A stretch of 15,894 nucleotides of DNA from Candidatus Iainarchaeum sp. (GTDB taxonomy: Archaea > Iainarchaeota > Iainarchaeia > Iainarchaeales > 0-14-0-20-34-12): NCBI GenBank assembly GCA_030649345.1, contig JAUSKK010000009.1, positions 1 through 15,894 on the forward strand, in the 5' to 3' direction. The notes beneath the pieces are model-generated. The model was not told the DNA's origin, ran no database searches, and saw only the letters and a program-made list of their open reading frames with translations. Positions 5,036 to 14,954 of this stretch are shown one piece after another; the stretch's first letter is position 1, and each line of letters begins with the position of its first letter. The position numbers and the translations under genes were made by a program.

Positions 5036-5097
5036 CAACCCGCGTGCGGGTTGGTAACACGTGGCACTTGCGTTTCACTTCAGTGCCACAGTTTTTT
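5036..5097 (+). repeat. double-hairpin element, copy 1 (unclassified structured RNA/DNA motif plus T-tract)
   Basis: Hairpin 1 is CAACCCG(5036-5042)/CGGGTTG(5047-5053) with loop CGTG. The linker GTAACAC contains CACGTG. Hairpin 2 is GTGGCACT(5061-5068)/AGTGCCAC(5082-5089) with loop TGCGTTTCACTTC, followed by TTTTTT (5092-5097). It is collinear with copy 2 at 10965 and shows compensatory stem substitutions. It fills the whole gap between the lrp stop (5096-5098) and the gatC start. Confidence 0.6.
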
Positions 5098-5533
5098 ATT
5101 CTTTGACTGTGCGGAAAACCAAACAACTTAAGGTTGCTGCAACTCCACGAATTCCTCGAACTCTATCCAATATGGTTTCTCCAATTTTTTTTAAATTTTC
5201 TCCGCGTACTTTGATGATAATATCAAATGTTCCAGTAATAATGTAGACTTCTTCTACGCCGGGAATTTTTGCAATTTGTTTAGCAACCTCATTTTGGTCA
5301 ATGCCTGACTTGTAATCATAGGTAATCAATACCATGGAAGTTGTTCCTAAATTTAATTTTTCATAATCTGGAACAATGGTGTATTTTTTGATGAATCCAT
5401 CGGTTTCCAATTTTTTAATTCTGTCAAAAACAGTGGTTCTCGGCATTCCCAATTCTTTAGCTAACTCTTTTACACTCTTCCTAGAGTTTTCTTTTAAACT
5501 ATCAATAATTAAAGAATCTTTTTTATCCATCAT
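5096..5533 (-). CDS. Lrp/AsnC-family transcriptional regulator
   Basis: N-terminal wHTH (IIDSLKENSRKSVKELAKELGMPRTTVFDRIKKLETDGFIKKYT) plus a C-terminal RAM/AsnC_trans_reg-like domain (VLITYD...VEEVYIITGTFDIIIKV). An A/T box (reverse complement catttataaattaaata) lies about 25-35 nt upstream of the ATG, suggesting a leaderless mRNA. Confidence 0.9.
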   Translation of the reverse strand: MMDKKDSLIIDSLKENSRKSVKELAKELGMPRTTVFDRIKKLETDGFIKKYTIVPDYEKLNLGTTSMVLITYDYKSGIDQNEVAKQIAKIPGVEEVYIITGTFDIIIKVRGENLKKIGETILDRVRGIRGVAATLSCLVFRTVKE

Positions 5534-5661: not shown

Positions 5662-5720
5662 GGGTGGGTAGTCGCAACACCGCCTGACCGCGGTGGCAGG
5701 TCGTGATGCTAAAGCATCAC
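5662..5720 (+). other. tRNA-Asn 5'-end duplicate fused to two GC-rich hairpins (unclassified RNA-like element)
   Basis: 5656-5673 (aaatacGGGTGGGTAGTC) repeats 5746-5763 (aaatatGGGTGGGTAGTC), which is the upstream flank plus the first 12 nt of tRNA-Asn, with one mismatch over 18 nt. It continues as CACCGC(5678-5683)/GCGGTG(5690-5695) and GTGATGC(5703-5709)/GCATCAC(5714-5720). No matching 3' acceptor strand exists, so it is not a complete tRNA. Confidence 0.4.
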
Positions 5721-5751
5721 TGTCTAAAGATTAAAGTTAATCCAAAAATAT

Positions 5752-5824
5752 GGGTGGGTAGTCCAATTTGGTAGGATGCAAGGCTGTTGACCTTGGGACA
5801 CTGGTTCGAGTCCAGTCCCACCCG
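5752..5824 (+). tRNA. tRNA-Asn (anticodon GTT), no intron, CCA not encoded
   Basis: Manual cloverleaf: acceptor GGGTGGG/CCCACCC, D arm GTCC-AATTTGGTA-GGAT, anticodon arm CAAGG-CTGTTGA-CCTTG (GTT at positions 34-36), T arm ACTGG-TTCGAGT-CCAGT, discriminator G. Confidence 0.92.
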
Positions 5825-5830
5825 CTATCC

Positions 5831-5890
5831 AAACCCTTCCAGGGTTTCGATGCATCCCGGGTGGAGGATCTTCGTTTCACTTGATCCTCC
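5831..5890 (+). repeat. double-hairpin element, copy 3 (divergent stems, conserved loop)
   Basis: Hairpin 1 is AAACCCT(5831-5837)/AGGGTTT(5841-5847). The 15-nt linker contains ATGCAT and CCCGGG. Hairpin 2 is GGAGGATC(5863-5870)/GATCCTCC(5883-5890) with loop TTCGTTTCACTT. That loop shares the 10-mer CGTTTCACTT with copy 1, although the stem sequence is completely different. It starts 6 nt after tRNA-Asn. Confidence 0.5.
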
Positions 5891-5995
5891 TGAACTTAAT
5901 TGCACTTGATACTGCGTTGGCAAAAAAGAAAGAAACCGTATTTGATCAAAAGAAATCAAATTAATTTGTAATTGTTTTAAGTTGTGTGAAATTTT

Positions 5996-6850
5996 ATGAC
6001 TGATAAAAAAATTGCGTATCTTGCTGCTGTGCTAGTTGGATTATTCGCTGGTTTTATTCCAATTGGATCTAAACTAGTTATAGCAGACGTTTCGCCTTTG
6101 GTTTTTTCGTTTTTTATCCATTTATTTCAATTGCCATTTTTACTCATCGCCATGTTTTTAACTGGAGAAAAATTATTTCTTCCCACCAGTGCACGTTCAA
6201 AATATTTTTTTGCAGGAATTGTTATTTTGGGTTTGGTGGGTATTGCTCTTGTAAACTTTGGCTACTCCGGCGGCTTAGCTTTAGAGGGTGCATTTCTTTC
6301 TCGTTTGGAGCCATTGTTTGCTGGCTTGTTAGGCTTTTTGCTTTTTCGTGAAGGTTTGCATAGAAATCAATGGCTGGGAATGCTTATGGCATTTATTGGT
6401 TTATTTTTGTTTTTTTCTTCTGGTTTAATGTTTTCTGTGTTTTCAATATTTTTCTTGGCAGCTGCTTTAAGTTGGGGCTTGCAAGATGTTCTTGCAAAAG
6501 AAATTATTCATCAAGCAGGTCCTGGTTTGATGAACTTAGGTCGTGTGCTTTTCGGATCTGCAGTTTTAGGTTTTTTTGTTTTTCCAGAAATTTTGCCAGT
6601 GCTTACAGTTCACTGGATAAGTTTTTTGTTAGTTGGTTTTTTGTATTTTGGTACAAATTATTTGGGATTCTATGCTATGAAAGAACTAACTGCCGCAGAG
6701 GCTGTTTCCTTTTATTTAATGGGTCCAGTAATTTCTCTTCTTTTGTCCGCAGTATGGCTTCATGAACCAATCAGTGGTGCTCAGTTGGCTGGTGGTGCAG
6801 TTATTTTGTTAGGACTCGGTCTAGTCTCAGTTTATGCAATTAAAAAATAA
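5996..6850 (+). CDS. EamA/DMT-superfamily transporter (about 10 TM)
   Basis: 284 aa, hydrophobic throughout, with the two-fold repeat architecture and Gly-rich helices typical of EamA-domain proteins. The internal ORF 6370..6765 in another frame is a shadow. Confidence 0.85.
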   Translation: MTDKKIAYLAAVLVGLFAGFIPIGSKLVIADVSPLVFSFFIHLFQLPFLLIAMFLTGEKLFLPTSARSKYFFAGIVILGLVGIALVNFGYSGGLALEGAFLSRLEPLFAGLLGFLLFREGLHRNQWLGMLMAFIGLFLFFSSGLMFSVFSIFFLAAALSWGLQDVLAKEIIHQAGPGLMNLGRVLFGSAVLGFFVFPEILPVLTVHWISFLLVGFLYFGTNYLGFYAMKELTAAEAVSFYLMGPVISLLLSAVWLHEPISGAQLAGGAVILLGLGLVSVYAIKK

Positions 6851-9272: not shown

Positions 9273-9311
9273 GTATTACGATTTAATGCATAATTTTGGA
9301 GGATGAAACAA

Positions 9312-10964
9312 ATGGCAGAAGCAGGACCACAGCAAAGAGAAATGGTATTTTTACCAGAAGGAGCAAAACGAACACGAGGACGAAATGCTCAACAAATTAA
9401 TATTTTAGTTGCACGCGCAGTAGCTGAAGCAGTACGCTCAACATTGGGCCCTAAAGGAATGGACAAAATGATTGTCGATGAACTCGGAGATATTATCATC
9501 AGCAATGACGGAGCAACCATTTTAGACAATATTAGTATTGATCACCCCATTGGAAAAATGATGGTGGAAGTTGCTAAAACTCAAGACAGCGAAGTCGGAG
9601 ACGGTACAACTACTGTAGTTGTTTTAGCCGGTGGATTATTAGAAAAAGCCGAAAAATTATTGGAAGACGAAATTCATCCCAGTGTAATCATTAAAGGATA
9701 CAGAATGGCTTCTCATAAAGCAGTTGAAGTCTTGAATGAAATTGCAGATCCTATTGACATTGAAAACAAAACCATTCTCAGAGAAATTGCTTTAACCACT
9801 ATGACTGGAAAAAGTGCAGAATCTGAAAAAAGTTTATCCGATATTGTAGTAGATGCTGTTTTGCAAGTTGCTGAAAAACAAGGCAAAGAAACAATTGTGG
9901 ACAAAGATCAAATTAAAATCGAAAAAAAAGACGGCGGACATGTATCTGAATCTGAATTGATTCGCGGAATTGTTGTAGATAAAGAAATTGTTCATTCCGG
10001 AATGCCTAAATTGGTTAACAATGCACGGATTGCTTTAATCGATGTTGCTTTAGAAGTTAAAGAAACAGAGACTGACGCAGAAATTTCTATTTCTGATCCA
10101 GAACAATTGCAGGCATTTATTGACAAAGAAGAAAGCATGCTGAAAGAAATGGTGGATAGAATTGCGAAAACCAAAGCCAATGTAGTCATGTGCCAAAAAG
10201 GAATAGATGACATTGCCCAGCATTTTTTAGCCAAAGCAGGAATTGCTGCATGCCGTAGAGTCAAGAAATCGGATATGGAAAAATTATCCAAAGCTACTGG
10301 TGGAAAATTAATTTCTCGGTTAGCAGACATTTCTGAAGAAGACTTAGGTCATGCAAAAATTGTTCAAGAAAAGAAAATTGGCGGAGAGGCCATGACTTTT
10401 ATTGAAGGCTGTAAGAATCCAAAGTCTGTAACTATTTTAGTTCGCGGCGGAACAAGCCATGTAGTAGCTGAAGTTGAACGCGCTGTAGTCGACGCCGTTG
10501 GAAGTGTCAGTACTGCATTAAAAGATGGAAAAATTGTCTCCGGCGGAGGAAGTACGGAAATGCAATTATCCATGCGTTTACGAGACTATGCTAAAACAGT
10601 TGGCGGCCGAGAACAATTAGCCATTGAATGTTTTGCAGAAGCTTTAGAAATTATTCCCAAAGCTTTAGCTGAAACAGCCGGAATGGATGCCATTGACACT
10701 TTAGTTGATTTAAGATCCAAACATTCTGTTAAGAAAGGCAAAAATATTGGAGTCAATGTATTCAAAGCCAAACTTGTAGATATGTTGGCTGAAAAAGTCA
10801 TTGAACCCATGCGAGTCAAAAGACAAGCTATTGTTTCCGCAACCGAAGTAGCTGAAATGATTCTCAGAATTGACGACATTATCGCAGGCTCCAGCAAAAA
10901 CAGAGGAATGCCACCCGGTGGAATGGGTGGAATGCCTGGCGGAATGGGCGACATGGATATGTAA
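9312..10964 (+). CDS. ths: thermosome subunit (group II chaperonin, Cpn60/TCP-1 family)
   Basis: [26 protein letters not shown] and [11 protein letters not shown](A)E motifs, [12 protein letters not shown], and a C-terminal GGM-type tail ([19 protein letters not shown]). I prefer ATG 9312 because GGAGG (9298-9302) lies 9 nt upstream. The in-frame ATG 9303 directly abuts that GGAGG and is the alternative. Confidence 0.95.
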
Positions 10965-11037
10965 CAACCGGGGTGCCGGTTGGTAGCACGTGGTACTTTC
11001 GCTAACGCTACAGTACCACTGTCTTTTCTTTTTTTTC
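10965..11037 (+). repeat. double-hairpin element, copy 2, directly after the thermosome stop, followed by a T-rich tract
   Basis: Hairpin 1 is CAACCGG(10965-10971)/CCGGTTG(10976-10982) with loop GGTG. The linker GTAGCAC contains CACGTG. Hairpin 2 is GTGGTACT(10990-10997)/AGTACCAC(11012-11019) with loop TTCGCTAACGCTAC. A T-rich tract follows (tgtcttttcttttttttc). It starts 1 nt after TAA 10962-10964. Confidence 0.6.
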
Positions 11038-11087: not shown

Positions 11088-11594
11088 ATGCAGGCACACA
11101 GAAAAATTTCTCGTACACCTAGATTGAATATTGGCCAGTATTGGAAAAATTACAAGCGCGCTGCTCGTGATCCTCGCATTTCAACTGTTCAAGCTCAGCG
11201 CGGATTGTTTGCGCGTGTCTTTAAACCACGGGTTTCTCCAAGCACTCGATTTATTTTAACCCTTATTGAAAACGAGCTTGCGCAAGGAATGACTTCAGAA
11301 TCTTTTCAGCGAGCGCATGTACATGCTTTGTCTGAATTGGAACTAGTTGGTGTTCCAAAACAAAATTGTCTTCCTGAACTAAAACAAAGGTATGATCAAT
11401 TATACAACGAACTTCAATCTCTGGCAGCTTTATCTATGGACGTTAAATTAAAGCAAGCAGACTTAATGCGCAAAGGAATAGTAACTCCAAGTGAACTTTT
11501 GTTGTACAATAAATTCAGTCATGCATTCCATAATGAAGCGCATCGAAGAATATTGTTTTTATCTGAACTCATTCACTCTGTTCGTTCCAGTTAA
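11088..11594 (+). CDS. Arg-rich helical protein, paralog 1 of a tandem triplet, unknown function
   Basis: 168 aa. It shares with the next two ORFs a basic N-terminus (TPRLNIGQ), a central block (FILTLIENELAQGMTSES) and a C-terminal block (LMRKGIVTPSELLLYNKFSHAFHNE). The box TTTTTATTTAAC (11059-11070) ends 17 nt before the ATG. Confidence 0.7.
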   Translation: MQAHRKISRTPRLNIGQYWKNYKRAARDPRISTVQAQRGLFARVFKPRVSPSTRFILTLIENELAQGMTSESFQRAHVHALSELELVGVPKQNCLPELKQRYDQLYNELQSLAALSMDVKLKQADLMRKGIVTPSELLLYNKFSHAFHNEAHRRILFLSELIHSVRSS

Positions 11595-11643
11595 CTGAAA
11601 AGATACTGTACTGTTTTTATTTTCTTTAATTCTTTAATTTTAT

Positions 11644-12183
11644 ATGTTGTACAAACGTCCTCCGCTCAAAAGACCAAAATATAGGCCAAGATTAAGTATT
11701 CGTAAACCCATGCGGGAATTTACGCATTTGCTGAAAGGAACTCCTAGAGAACAACATGAAAGAGTGCGTACTCGTTTTTTTTCAGAATTTTTTAGATCCC
11801 AAACTTTTGCAGCTGGACGCTTATTATTTAATTTAATGGAGCAAGAAATTGCTAAAGGAATTTCTGAAACTTCTTCGGGGCAAATTCTTGGGCGTGCCAG
11901 AACTATCTTGAAAATTGCACGCACAAAATTAAAAGGAAAAAAAGTTTCCTCTCTTGCTGCTGAAGAAAGCTTGAAAGTAATGGTTCGAGAATTAGACCGT
12001 GATTTTGAACGATTAAGTAGATTCGGTACAAGCATGCGGTTTCGTGAAAGTGACATGTTAACTCAAGGAGTTATTGGAGTTAATGAAATGACTCCCTACA
12101 ATGAATTTATTCATGCATTCAAAGGAGAACTGGGCCTTCGAAGAACTTTGCTGGTGATTCTTAAACGAGAATTAGCTAAATGA
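11644..12183 (+). CDS. Arg-rich helical protein, paralog 2 of a tandem triplet, unknown function
   Basis: 179 aa with RPRLSIRK, LLFNLMEQEIAKGISETS and MLTQGVIGVNEMTPYNEFIHAFKGE blocks collinear with paralogs 1 and 3. The box TTTTTATTTTCT (11614-11625) ends 18 nt before the ATG. The antisense 138-aa ORF 11640..12056 is rejected because the + frame has paralog support. Confidence 0.7.
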   Translation: MLYKRPPLKRPKYRPRLSIRKPMREFTHLLKGTPREQHERVRTRFFSEFFRSQTFAAGRLLFNLMEQEIAKGISETSSGQILGRARTILKIARTKLKGKKVSSLAAEESLKVMVRELDRDFERLSRFGTSMRFRESDMLTQGVIGVNEMTPYNEFIHAFKGELGLRRTLLVILKRELAK

Positions 12184-12225
12184 TATTTTGCATACTTTTT
12201 TATTTTCTAAAATTACTATATCTCT

Positions 12226-12747
12226 ATGAAAAAACCAATTCCATTCAAACCAGTCCGAAAAGTTGGCTTGAATGTTGAACGAACTTGGCAAAAATATTCT
12301 GCCATGCGACGAGTTTATGGTGAAAATACTCGAACATTTCGTCCGCATAGATTGGCTTTGTTTAATAGCTTAGTTCGAAAACAAATTCCTTTAGATCTCA
12401 AAATTTTATTTGACGCAGTCAGTATTGAATTTGAAAAGTCACCGCGTTTAGCTAATCCCAGAGAAGCAGTCAACAGAGTTCAACGTTTTCTGCGAAGCCA
12501 TGGTGCATCGCCTGAAGAAACACCAGTCCGTTTGCGTTCTATGATTAAAGACATGCAAGGACTTTTAGATCGCTTAACTGCATTCGAGACACAGGCAAGA
12601 GTTCAACAAAAACGTTTGATGGCCAAAGGGCGAATTCAATTCACTGATTTTAAAGCCTATTCTGCGTTTGTTGCTGAATTAAAAGACCAAGTAGAAACCC
12701 GAAAACGGTTTATGGACTTATTGGCTCGAGAGTTAGGAACTGATTAG
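12226..12747 (+). CDS. Arg-rich helical protein, paralog 3 of a tandem triplet, unknown function
   Basis: 173 aa with KPVRKVGLNV, ILFDAVSIEFEKSPRLAN and LMAKGRIQFTDFKAYSAFVAELKDQ blocks collinear with paralogs 1 and 2. The box TTTTTATTTTCT (12197-12208) ends 17 nt before the ATG. Confidence 0.7.
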   Translation: MKKPIPFKPVRKVGLNVERTWQKYSAMRRVYGENTRTFRPHRLALFNSLVRKQIPLDLKILFDAVSIEFEKSPRLANPREAVNRVQRFLRSHGASPEETPVRLRSMIKDMQGLLDRLTAFETQARVQQKRLMAKGRIQFTDFKAYSAFVAELKDQVETRKRFMDLLARELGTD

Positions 12748-14754: not shown

Positions 14755-14820
14755 GCCTAAGCTTTGATTATTGTGCATAGCATATTCATTTTAATTCTTT
14801 GAATTACTTGTTTTATAGTT

Positions 14821-14894
14821 GGGCCTGTAGCTCAGCCTGGCAGAGCATTGGTCTTATACGCCAGTGGTCAACGGTTCAAATCCGTTCAGGCCCA
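14821..14894 (+). tRNA. tRNA-Ile (anticodon TAT), no intron, CCA not encoded
   Basis: Manual cloverleaf: acceptor GGGCCTG/CAGGCCC, D arm GCTC-AGCCTGGCA-GAGC, anticodon arm TTGGT-CTTATAC-GCCAG (terminal G-U pairs, TAT at positions 34-36), variable TGGTC, T arm AACGG-TTCAAAT-CCGTT, discriminator A. Confidence 0.88.
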
Positions 14895-14954
14895 AACTGC
14901 AACTTTCTTGTAATTCAAAAAGTTTTATTAAGTTAGTTAACTGCATGTGAAACA

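Follow-up and report, generated by a model that had tools for sequence, protein, structure and literature searches.

The window analysed here is a complete 15,894-nt contig (JAUSKK010000009.1; 35% GC) of a Diapherotrites-like DPANN archaeon, in which the tRNA-Asn gene is followed on the + strand by a pair of adjacent hairpins (5831-5890), hereafter c3. In our preferred reading, to which we assign a probability of roughly 0.55, c3 is a diverged copy of a lineage- or strain-specific family of tandem-hairpin repeats that acts at the level of DNA, and not a conserved tRNA-linked regulator. Four such tandem-hairpin elements, all on the + strand, lie within 16 kb: c1, c2, c3 and a further element, X. 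They share a common structural plan, and c3, X and the second-hairpin module of c1 are present in this strain and absent from a close sister strain. On present evidence c3 is an element without a dedicated cellular function.

The double-hairpin architecture which the original prediction, an earlier reading of the same DNA, placed beside tRNA-Asn is borne out: both hairpins are perfect, and both form whether c3 is folded as RNA or as DNA. Hairpin 1 (5831-5847) pairs AAACCCT with AGGGTTT across the 3-nt loop TCC (7 bp), and hairpin 2 (5863-5890) pairs GGAGGATC with GATCCTCC across the 12-nt loop TTCGTTTCACTT (8 bp). Between them lies the 15-nt linker CGATGCATCCCGGGT (5848-5862), which includes, as had been described, the palindromes GATGCATC (ATGCAT) and CCCGGG. 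The loop of hairpin 2 contains a 10-mer, CGTTTCACTT (5873-5882), that is identical to 5071-5080 of c1, again as originally reported. The element forms a GC-rich island within an AT-rich genome and folds better than shuffled sequence (z = -2.5). Independent Logan assemblies of run SRR13727527 (contigs L016 and L001) give the same sequence as the window. These two contigs, L016 at its end and L001 at its start, break within c3 at 5828-5856, with a 29-nt overlap between hairpins 1 and 2, which suggests a branch in the assembly graph arising from a repeat or from population heterogeneity at c3.

Three smaller features of c3 are recorded here for completeness. The arms of hairpin 2, GGAGGATC and GATCCTCC, followed by TGA (5863-5893), are reminiscent of a Shine–Dalgarno sequence and of the 16S rRNA 3′ terminus. 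The linker segment CGGGTGG (5856-5862) is complementary to the 3′ acceptor strand of tRNA-Asn (CCACCCG) and mimics the tRNA 5′ end GGGTGG. A direct repeat, CACTTGAT, runs across the loop and 3′ arm of hairpin 2 (5877-5884) and recurs 23 nt further downstream (5900-5907); the second copy may be the debris of another element copy or the footprint of a repeat-mediated deletion.

The other members of the family are given here as 5′ arm/loop/3′ arm. Element c1 (5036-5089, + strand) comprises CAACCCG/CGTG/CGGGTTG, the linker GTAACAC and GTGGCACT/TGCGTTTCACTTC/AGTGCCAC; it occupies the whole gap between the start of gatC (5027) and the stop of the Lrp/AsnC regulator gene lrp (5096), both of which are encoded on the - strand, and is antisense to both genes. 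Element c2 (10965-11019, + strand) comprises CAACCGG/GGTG/CCGGTTG, the linker GTAGCAC and GTGGTACT/TTCGCTAACGCTAC/AGTACCAC; it begins 1 nt past the stop codon of the thermosome gene and is followed by a long T-rich tract. The list of three copies drawn up originally is extended by X (5676-5728, + strand), a newly found fourth element with CACCGC/CTGACC/GCGGTG, the 7-nt linker GCAGGTC, GTGATGC/TAAA/GCATCAC and a TGTCT tail that is the same as the tail of c2. Strong perfect stems (at least 7 bp, at least 4 G/C, loop of 3-16 nt) number 6 in the window versus 1.3 ± 1.2 in dinucleotide shuffles, and all six fall in c1, c2, c3 or X; tandem hairpin pairs no more than 20 nt apart are likewise enriched (5 observed, 0.24 expected).

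Elements c1 and c2 are 88% identical, one compensated stem change included, and a covariance model built from these two copies recovers, in an unfiltered search of the window, c2 (93.5 bits), c1 (91.1 bits) and, over its full length, X (20.0 bits, E=4e-4). Only a local match to hairpin 2 is obtained for c3 (8.9 bits, E=0.48), which is background level, an outcome that the original prediction had itself named as counting against its grouping of the three copies; judged by this model, c3 is not a c1/c2-type copy. Its putative membership of the family rests on the shared 10-mer, the same stem sizes and a hairpin 1 that agrees with that of c1 (CAACCCG) at 5 of 7 positions, both differences being compensated on the 3′ arm. 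It also keeps the family plan, in which a small-loop hairpin of 7 bp precedes a large-loop hairpin of 8 bp, with exclusively Watson-Crick pairs. The stem of hairpin 2, which had been said to share no sequence with that of c1, has 3 of 8 positions in common with it. Were the likeness of c3 to c1 and c2 a coincidence and c3 an isolated hairpin pair, both the background score and the longer linker (15 nt versus 7 nt in c1, c2 and X) would be accounted for, yet we judge coincidence to be extremely improbable: a 10-mer is shared in equivalent loops (P ~1e-4 to 3e-4), the stem sizes agree, hairpin 1 shows the compensated differences just described, and tandem strong hairpins are essentially absent from shuffles. 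In an alignment of c1, c2, X and c3 made by hand and fitted to the hairpins, all 59 stem cells are Watson-Crick without a single G-U, and 11 of the 15 stem pairs have changed on both sides, none on one side only. Because all stem cells are Watson-Crick and the changes two-sided, with no G-U pairs, DNA palindromes fit these data better than an RNA under selection.

In the window CGTTTCACTT is present at exactly two sites, 5071 and 5873, each of them on the + strand and within the loop of a hairpin 2. With one mismatch allowed, no further site is found on either strand of the window, and ~148 kb of other loci contain none save in re-assemblies of the same organism. The chance of two such loops sharing a 10-mer, estimated from the window's own 10-mer repeat statistics, is ~9e-5 per loop pair and ~3e-4 over three pairs. 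The occurrence of the 10-mer in both c1 and c3 is not due to chance; since the two copies lie only 0.8 kb apart, the sharing is explicable by local exchange. The original prediction interpreted it as a conserved recognition loop presented on a freely covarying stem. One half of this stands, in that the stems do covary with pairing kept. The loop is not conserved across the family, however: that of c2 is TTCGCTAACGCTAC and that of X the 4-nt TAAA, so that the exact 10-mer is confined to c1 and c3. These differing loops, the lack of both 10-mer copies in the sister strain, the short distance between c1 and c3 and the antisense position of c1 weaken the recognition-loop interpretation. Overall, what was originally observed is confirmed and what was concluded from it is supported in part.

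The complement AAGTGAAACG, put forward as a possible pairing target, has no separate site in the window: its sole occurrence is on the reverse strand of c1 itself, the strand that is sense for lrp-gatCAB. A trans-acting role could be built on this strand, whereby a kissing pair between two RNA loops would link tRNA-Asn output to GatCAB expression and the repeat would have been recently co-opted as a riboregulator. The - strand lrp-gatCAB mRNA would present AAGUGAAACG, the perfect complement of the c3 trailer loop CGUUUCACUU, in the loop of a hairpin located shortly before gatC. In archaea without AsnRS, GatCAB is expected to convert Asp-tRNA(Asn) to Asn-tRNA(Asn). The exact 10-nt complementarity of two hairpin loops beside functionally linked genes, a predicted duplex energy of -11.5 kcal/mol and the lack of the 10-mer in c2, which lies next to an unrelated gene, all speak for such an interaction. 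We nonetheless hold it to be most unlikely, as complementarity arises automatically once two same-strand repeat copies, here 0.8 kb from each other, belong to divergent transcription units, the sister strain carries these genes with neither loop, 82 kb of distant relatives show no conservation, and the spacer is only putatively part of the gatCAB mRNA.

The sister strain is represented by three groundwater contigs (L017, L018 and L019) of a close relative, reached via the Lrp protein cluster. Compared with L017, lrp is identical at 420 of 438 positions (~96%) and the lrp-tRNA spacer at 139 of 139, and the window differs from the sister by discrete block replacements, each located exactly at a hairpin element. 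In place of c1, the lrp-gatC spacer of the sister holds only a hairpin-1-type stem, CAACCAG/GGTT/CTGGTT, which is compensated relative to c1 and c2; the second hairpin is absent and so, consequently, is the 10-mer. The sister also lacks X, which the window carries within a 90-nt insertion (5674-5763). Here a direct repeat of tRNA nt 1-12, GGGTGGGTAGTC, is present at 5662-5673 and 5752-5763. At the c3 site, a 32-nt AT-rich hairpin stands in place of window positions 5827-5914 and homology resumes at CGTTGGCRAAAAAGAAAGAAACCG; the block that differs from the sister comprises c3 and a 24-nt 3′ extension containing the second CACTTGAT. The sister tRNA-Asn gene (L017 about 1915-2092, - strand) has exons identical to those of the window. 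Because the sister strain has the same tRNA-Asn exons and no c3, c3 is dispensable for tRNA-Asn and for gatCAB; it belongs to a class of sequence whose turnover is much faster than that of its surroundings.

Further details of the two loci accompany this comparison. The GGGTGGGTAGTC repeat extends imperfectly upstream into CAAAATAC and CAAAAATAT. The 90-nt insertion falls in the 5′ part of tRNA-Asn, the downstream repeat copy restores a complete tRNA gene, and the native tRNA-Asn promoter region now stands ahead of a 12-nt tRNA fragment and X. The tRNA-Asn gene of the window (5752-5825, ending at 5824/5825, + strand; anticodon GTT) is intron-less, does not encode CCA and has c3 in its 3′ trailer. 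The sister gene contains a ~105-nt insertion at the canonical intron position 37/38 that the window gene is without. This insertion holds perfect AT/polypurine hairpins and a copy of AAAGAAAGAAACCG, a motif present also downstream of the gene; ARAGORN does not call the sister tRNA-Asn with its insertion, and no bulge–helix–bulge motif is evident in the minimum-free-energy fold. Some 70 nt 3′ of c3 (window 5915-5938 versus L017) synteny ends, the window continuing into a gene for an EamA transporter and the sister into an unannotated 130-aa gene without an NCBIfam match. Since synteny stops at this point, the 3′ flank of tRNA-Asn is a rearrangement breakpoint.

Conceivably, the elements work as a cis-acting RNA 3′-end module, stabilising mRNA or helping termination as some bacterial repetitive extragenic palindromic (REP) sequences do, in which case c3 would shape the processing or stability of the tRNA-Asn precursor. 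Several placements are in keeping with this: c2 precisely fills the interval from the stop codon of the thermosome gene to a long T-tract, and relatives with 70-75% thermosome identity carry at the same place only short AT-rich hairpins with T-tracts; T-runs follow both c1 and c2 on the + strand; c3 lies in a tRNA trailer and X in its leader; the stems are kept via compensatory change, and all copies occupy one strand. We nevertheless regard the module as an unlikely, if still credible, explanation. The position of c1, which is preceded by no + strand gene and is antisense to gatC as well as lrp, argues against a common cis-RNA role. As had been pointed out before, c3 has no immediate T-tract (no run of five or more T lies directly 3′ of it), a feature of intrinsic terminators that c1 and c2 possess, and the sister tRNA-Asn has a T-rich flank instead of c3. 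G-U pairs are absent from the 59 stem cells, and a terminator scan of the window shows no enrichment (13 found, 12.3 expected).

The GC-rich composition and better-than-shuffled folding of c3 would also suit a small RNA gene in its own right, or membership of an established RNA class (box C/D or H/ACA sRNA, riboswitch, tRNA-like RNA). A search of the window against Rfam at E<=1, however, returns only the two tRNAs and nothing for c3 or X, and neither C/D boxes nor an ACA box can be read from the sequence of c3. No TATA-like promoter precedes c1 or c2, both of which abut coding sequence, and c3 is without a terminator and absent from the sister strain; we consider such a gene highly improbable. 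Two related candidates were also rejected. By eye, the loops lack the defining boxes of box C/D, H/ACA, K-turn, T-loop, selenocysteine insertion sequence (SECIS) and origin recognition box (ORB) elements. X was considered as a split, permuted or intron-containing tRNA, but ARAGORN, run with introns and relaxed thresholds, finds only tRNA-Asn, and Rfam finds nothing.

If the elements are DNA-level repeats, as we favour, they would be gained, lost and replaced as DNA between near-identical strains and would persist wherever a compact genome tolerates them, be it past a stop codon, in the gap separating two genes, or in a tRNA leader or trailer. Thus placed, c3 would stand outside the tRNA-Asn gene's own machinery. 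The hairpins may be maintained or propagated as single-stranded DNA structures, in the manner of REPs and bacterial interspersed mosaic elements (BIMEs), of IS200/IS605 ends and palindrome-associated transposable elements (PATEs), or of mitochondrial double-hairpin elements (DHEs). The mosaic in which c1 and c3 have one loop in common and c1 and c2 their stems would result from recombination or gene conversion among nearby copies. Orientation appears to be independent of transcription, given that c1 is antisense to both its neighbours. As no terminator lies between the tRNA and c3, the two are probably co-transcribed, a possibility already raised in the original prediction and made plausible by the lack of any intervening T-tract; c3 would then be cut off with the pre-tRNA trailer during 3′ processing, a secondary effect and plausibly a passive consequence of location. 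In a similar way, c2 would supply the thermosome mRNA with a stable 3′ structure ahead of its T-tract.

A number of observations weigh against this reading. The family has been seen in 16 kb of genome only, in four copies. The sister sites of c1 and c3 hold other sequence, are not empty and offer no clean insertion boundaries. X is flanked by a 12-nt direct repeat, a feature that peel-and-paste transposition of the IS200/IS605 kind does not generate. The pairing kept on differing stems could reflect selection on RNA, and all four copies share one orientation, three of the four being sense to a transcript. The 16-kb window holds no Y1 gene and encodes no transposase. Comparisons with the ends of an insertion sequence (IS) of the IS200 type from the sister lineage, described below, are negative: a covariance model (R2) based on the right ends of two IS copies recovers neither c1, c2, c3 nor X (top scores in the window 6-7 bits, E>2), Smith-Waterman local alignments of the elements to the IS remain at shuffle level, and the loops of the two IS copies (L017 and L024) differ from each other.

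As to what might mobilise the repeats, an HUH Y1 transposase of the IS200 type, encoded in the sister lineage, is the leading candidate, albeit a doubtful one whose link to the elements is weak. The gene on L017 matches Pfam Y1_Tnp and NCBIfam transpos_IS200 (E=4e-10, below the cut-off of that model), and the sister TnpA proteins (126-159 aa) contain the motifs NHVH, WS and YIENQ and resemble subclass 1.1 of the TnpA-Y1 classification (PMC6006769). The element occurs in two genomic contexts, L017 about 756-1420 and L024 about 318-1041, whose differing flanks define its ends. Read on the strand antisense to tnpA, the tnpA-distal end comprises ATAGGGGC/TYC/GCCCCTAT (8 bp), a linker of 13-15 nt and a second hairpin (L017, L024) whose 10-bp stem has a single bulged base and whose loop measures 11-13 nt, with TATCT after it. 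This right end is like c3, in which 7 bp with a TCC loop and 8 bp with a loop of 12 nt are joined by a linker of 15 nt. Furthermore, the c1 loop and the L017 loop TCCGCTTCGCTTC agree at 10 of 13 positions, and c2 and X both carry the TRTCT tail of the IS end. Because the homology tests are negative, the IS loops differ and X has a 12-nt target duplication, the Y1 transposase is a candidate and not an established agent; because the two IS copies have different loops, the loop is also not obviously what TnpA reads.

Some side results concern the same IS. One of its ends carries a nested GC-rich hairpin and a 7-bp hairpin with a 14-nt loop, the other the double hairpin, and in L017 this double-hairpin end adjoins an SMC-like gene at its stop codon. 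The negative R2 search speaks against homology between the c elements and the IS right end. Downstream of c3, TTAATTGC is like TTAGATTGC and was considered as a remnant of the 3′ end of tnpA, but was discarded with the local alignment at shuffle level. Also discarded was a Y1 target tetranucleotide upstream of the elements, for which the candidates TTAC, TAAC and ATCC are inconsistent.

Structured repeats of this kind have several counterparts elsewhere, although the specific features compared do not place the family clearly within REP/BIME, PATEs or mitochondrial DHEs. PATEs, described in the archaeon Haloquadratum walsbyi, derive from IS200/IS605-type transposons but lack the transposase; they can be as short as 52 bp, consist of fused IS605-type terminal palindromes and account for differences between strains (PMC3119063). 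The present elements are similarly short, non-coding and heterogeneous in sequence, have two near-terminal palindromes and no terminal inverted repeats, and differ between strains. For c1, c2, c3 and X, by contrast, no homology to the IS ends could be shown by sequence or by model, and within any one element the two hairpins are unlike; moreover, PATEs make no target duplication, whereas X has one of 12 nt and none is visible at c1, c2 or c3.

Bacterial REP/BIME sequences (PMC3733652, PMC6006769) are likewise GC-rich extragenic hairpins of 20-65 nt, mostly directly 3′ of genes, with mosaic hairpin combinations, fixed-length linkers and strain variation, and when transcribed they can stabilise mRNA or terminate transcription. 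The foot tag GT[AG]G or CGTC of REPs and their REP-associated tyrosine transposases (RAYTs) is not consistent here: GTAG is found only in c2, 3 nt from the stem, and the corresponding positions read GTAA in c1 and GCAG in X, while c3 has no tag (CCCGGGT before hairpin 2). Nor is a RAYT seen in the 16-kb window, and REPs have been described from bacteria whereas the host here is a DPANN archaeon. REP systems are marked by a cognate RAYT gene with the repeats on its flanks (a REPtron) and by tens to hundreds of copies per genome; the present count is four in 16 kb. The subterminal hairpins of IS200/IS605 elements (IS608, ISDra2; PMC6006769, PMC5027513) resemble the family in being small DNA hairpins read on one strand, with strand-specific orientation. 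Their stems contain a bulged base, in contrast to the perfect stems of the c elements, and for the elements described here there is neither an identifiable guide or target tetranucleotide nor an adjacent tnpA.

DHEs occur in the mitochondria of Allomyces and Schizosaccharomyces, alongside related repetitive hairpin elements and GC clusters (Paquin et al. 2000 via PMC2800124; PMC10085805). They too consist of two adjacent GC-rich hairpins in a compact AT-rich genome, are intergenic and often lie beside tRNA genes; they keep their structure as the sequence changes, and close relatives differ in their insertions. DHEs belong to fungal organellar genomes and have no sequence relationship to the present family, so the parallel is an analogy of architecture and description and not one of membership.

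Wider searches place the family, so far, in this lineage. No members are found in 82 kb from relatives with 70-75% identical thermosomes. Exact-pattern scans of GTDB genomes and JGI metagenomes with the c1/c2 core (AACC N6-10 GGTTGGTANCACGTGG), and of IMG/VR with two patterns, return chance matches only, in collections that do not contain the source contig of the window; most of these matches lie in coding sequence reading GWYHVA. A limited literature search found no description of such hairpin repeats in Diapherotrites.

If our reading of the family is correct, even very small DPANN genomes carry fast-turnover hairpin repeats that are defined by structure, and strains that are otherwise ~96-100% identical have had their gene boundaries remodelled by these repeats, among them a tRNA leader and trailer and possibly the intron content of that tRNA gene. 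Structured intergenic repeats are already well documented in bacteria (REP/BIME), haloarchaea (PATEs) and mitochondria (DHEs), and the present case is found in a DPANN archaeon; were a link to an IS200-type Y1 transposase to be proven, REP-like biology would reach into the DPANN archaea. In practice such repeats matter for assembly and binning, as the breaks of the Logan contigs inside c3 illustrate, for the annotation of tRNA genes, and for the reading of GC-rich islands as candidate RNA genes.

The remaining features of the window can be summarised briefly. The genes gatB, gatA and gatC are encoded on the - strand, as is lrp (5096-5533), and the EamA transporter gene (5996-6850) on the + strand; the best non-self homologue of the latter is only 27% identical. 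The thermosome gene (9303-10964) encodes a protein with 65-75% identity to proteins that the sources name 'Candidatus Diapherotrites', a DPANN archaeal phylum. Directly 3′ of c2, three tandem genes (11088-12747) encode proteins of 168, 179 and 173 aa that have no Pfam or NCBIfam matches and for which clusters yielded no relatives with at least 90% identity. Proteins one and two are clearly paralogous (24% identity, E=3e-12), whereas the relationship of the third is marginal (E=0.04). A tRNA-Ile gene with the anticodon TAT (14820-14895) is also present on two related Diapherotrites-like contigs (L011, 9581-9654; L013, 15581-15654). Finally, the very start of the contig (2-27) forms an 11-bp perfect AT-rich hairpin, AAAGATTAAGG/AAAA/CCTTAATCTTT.

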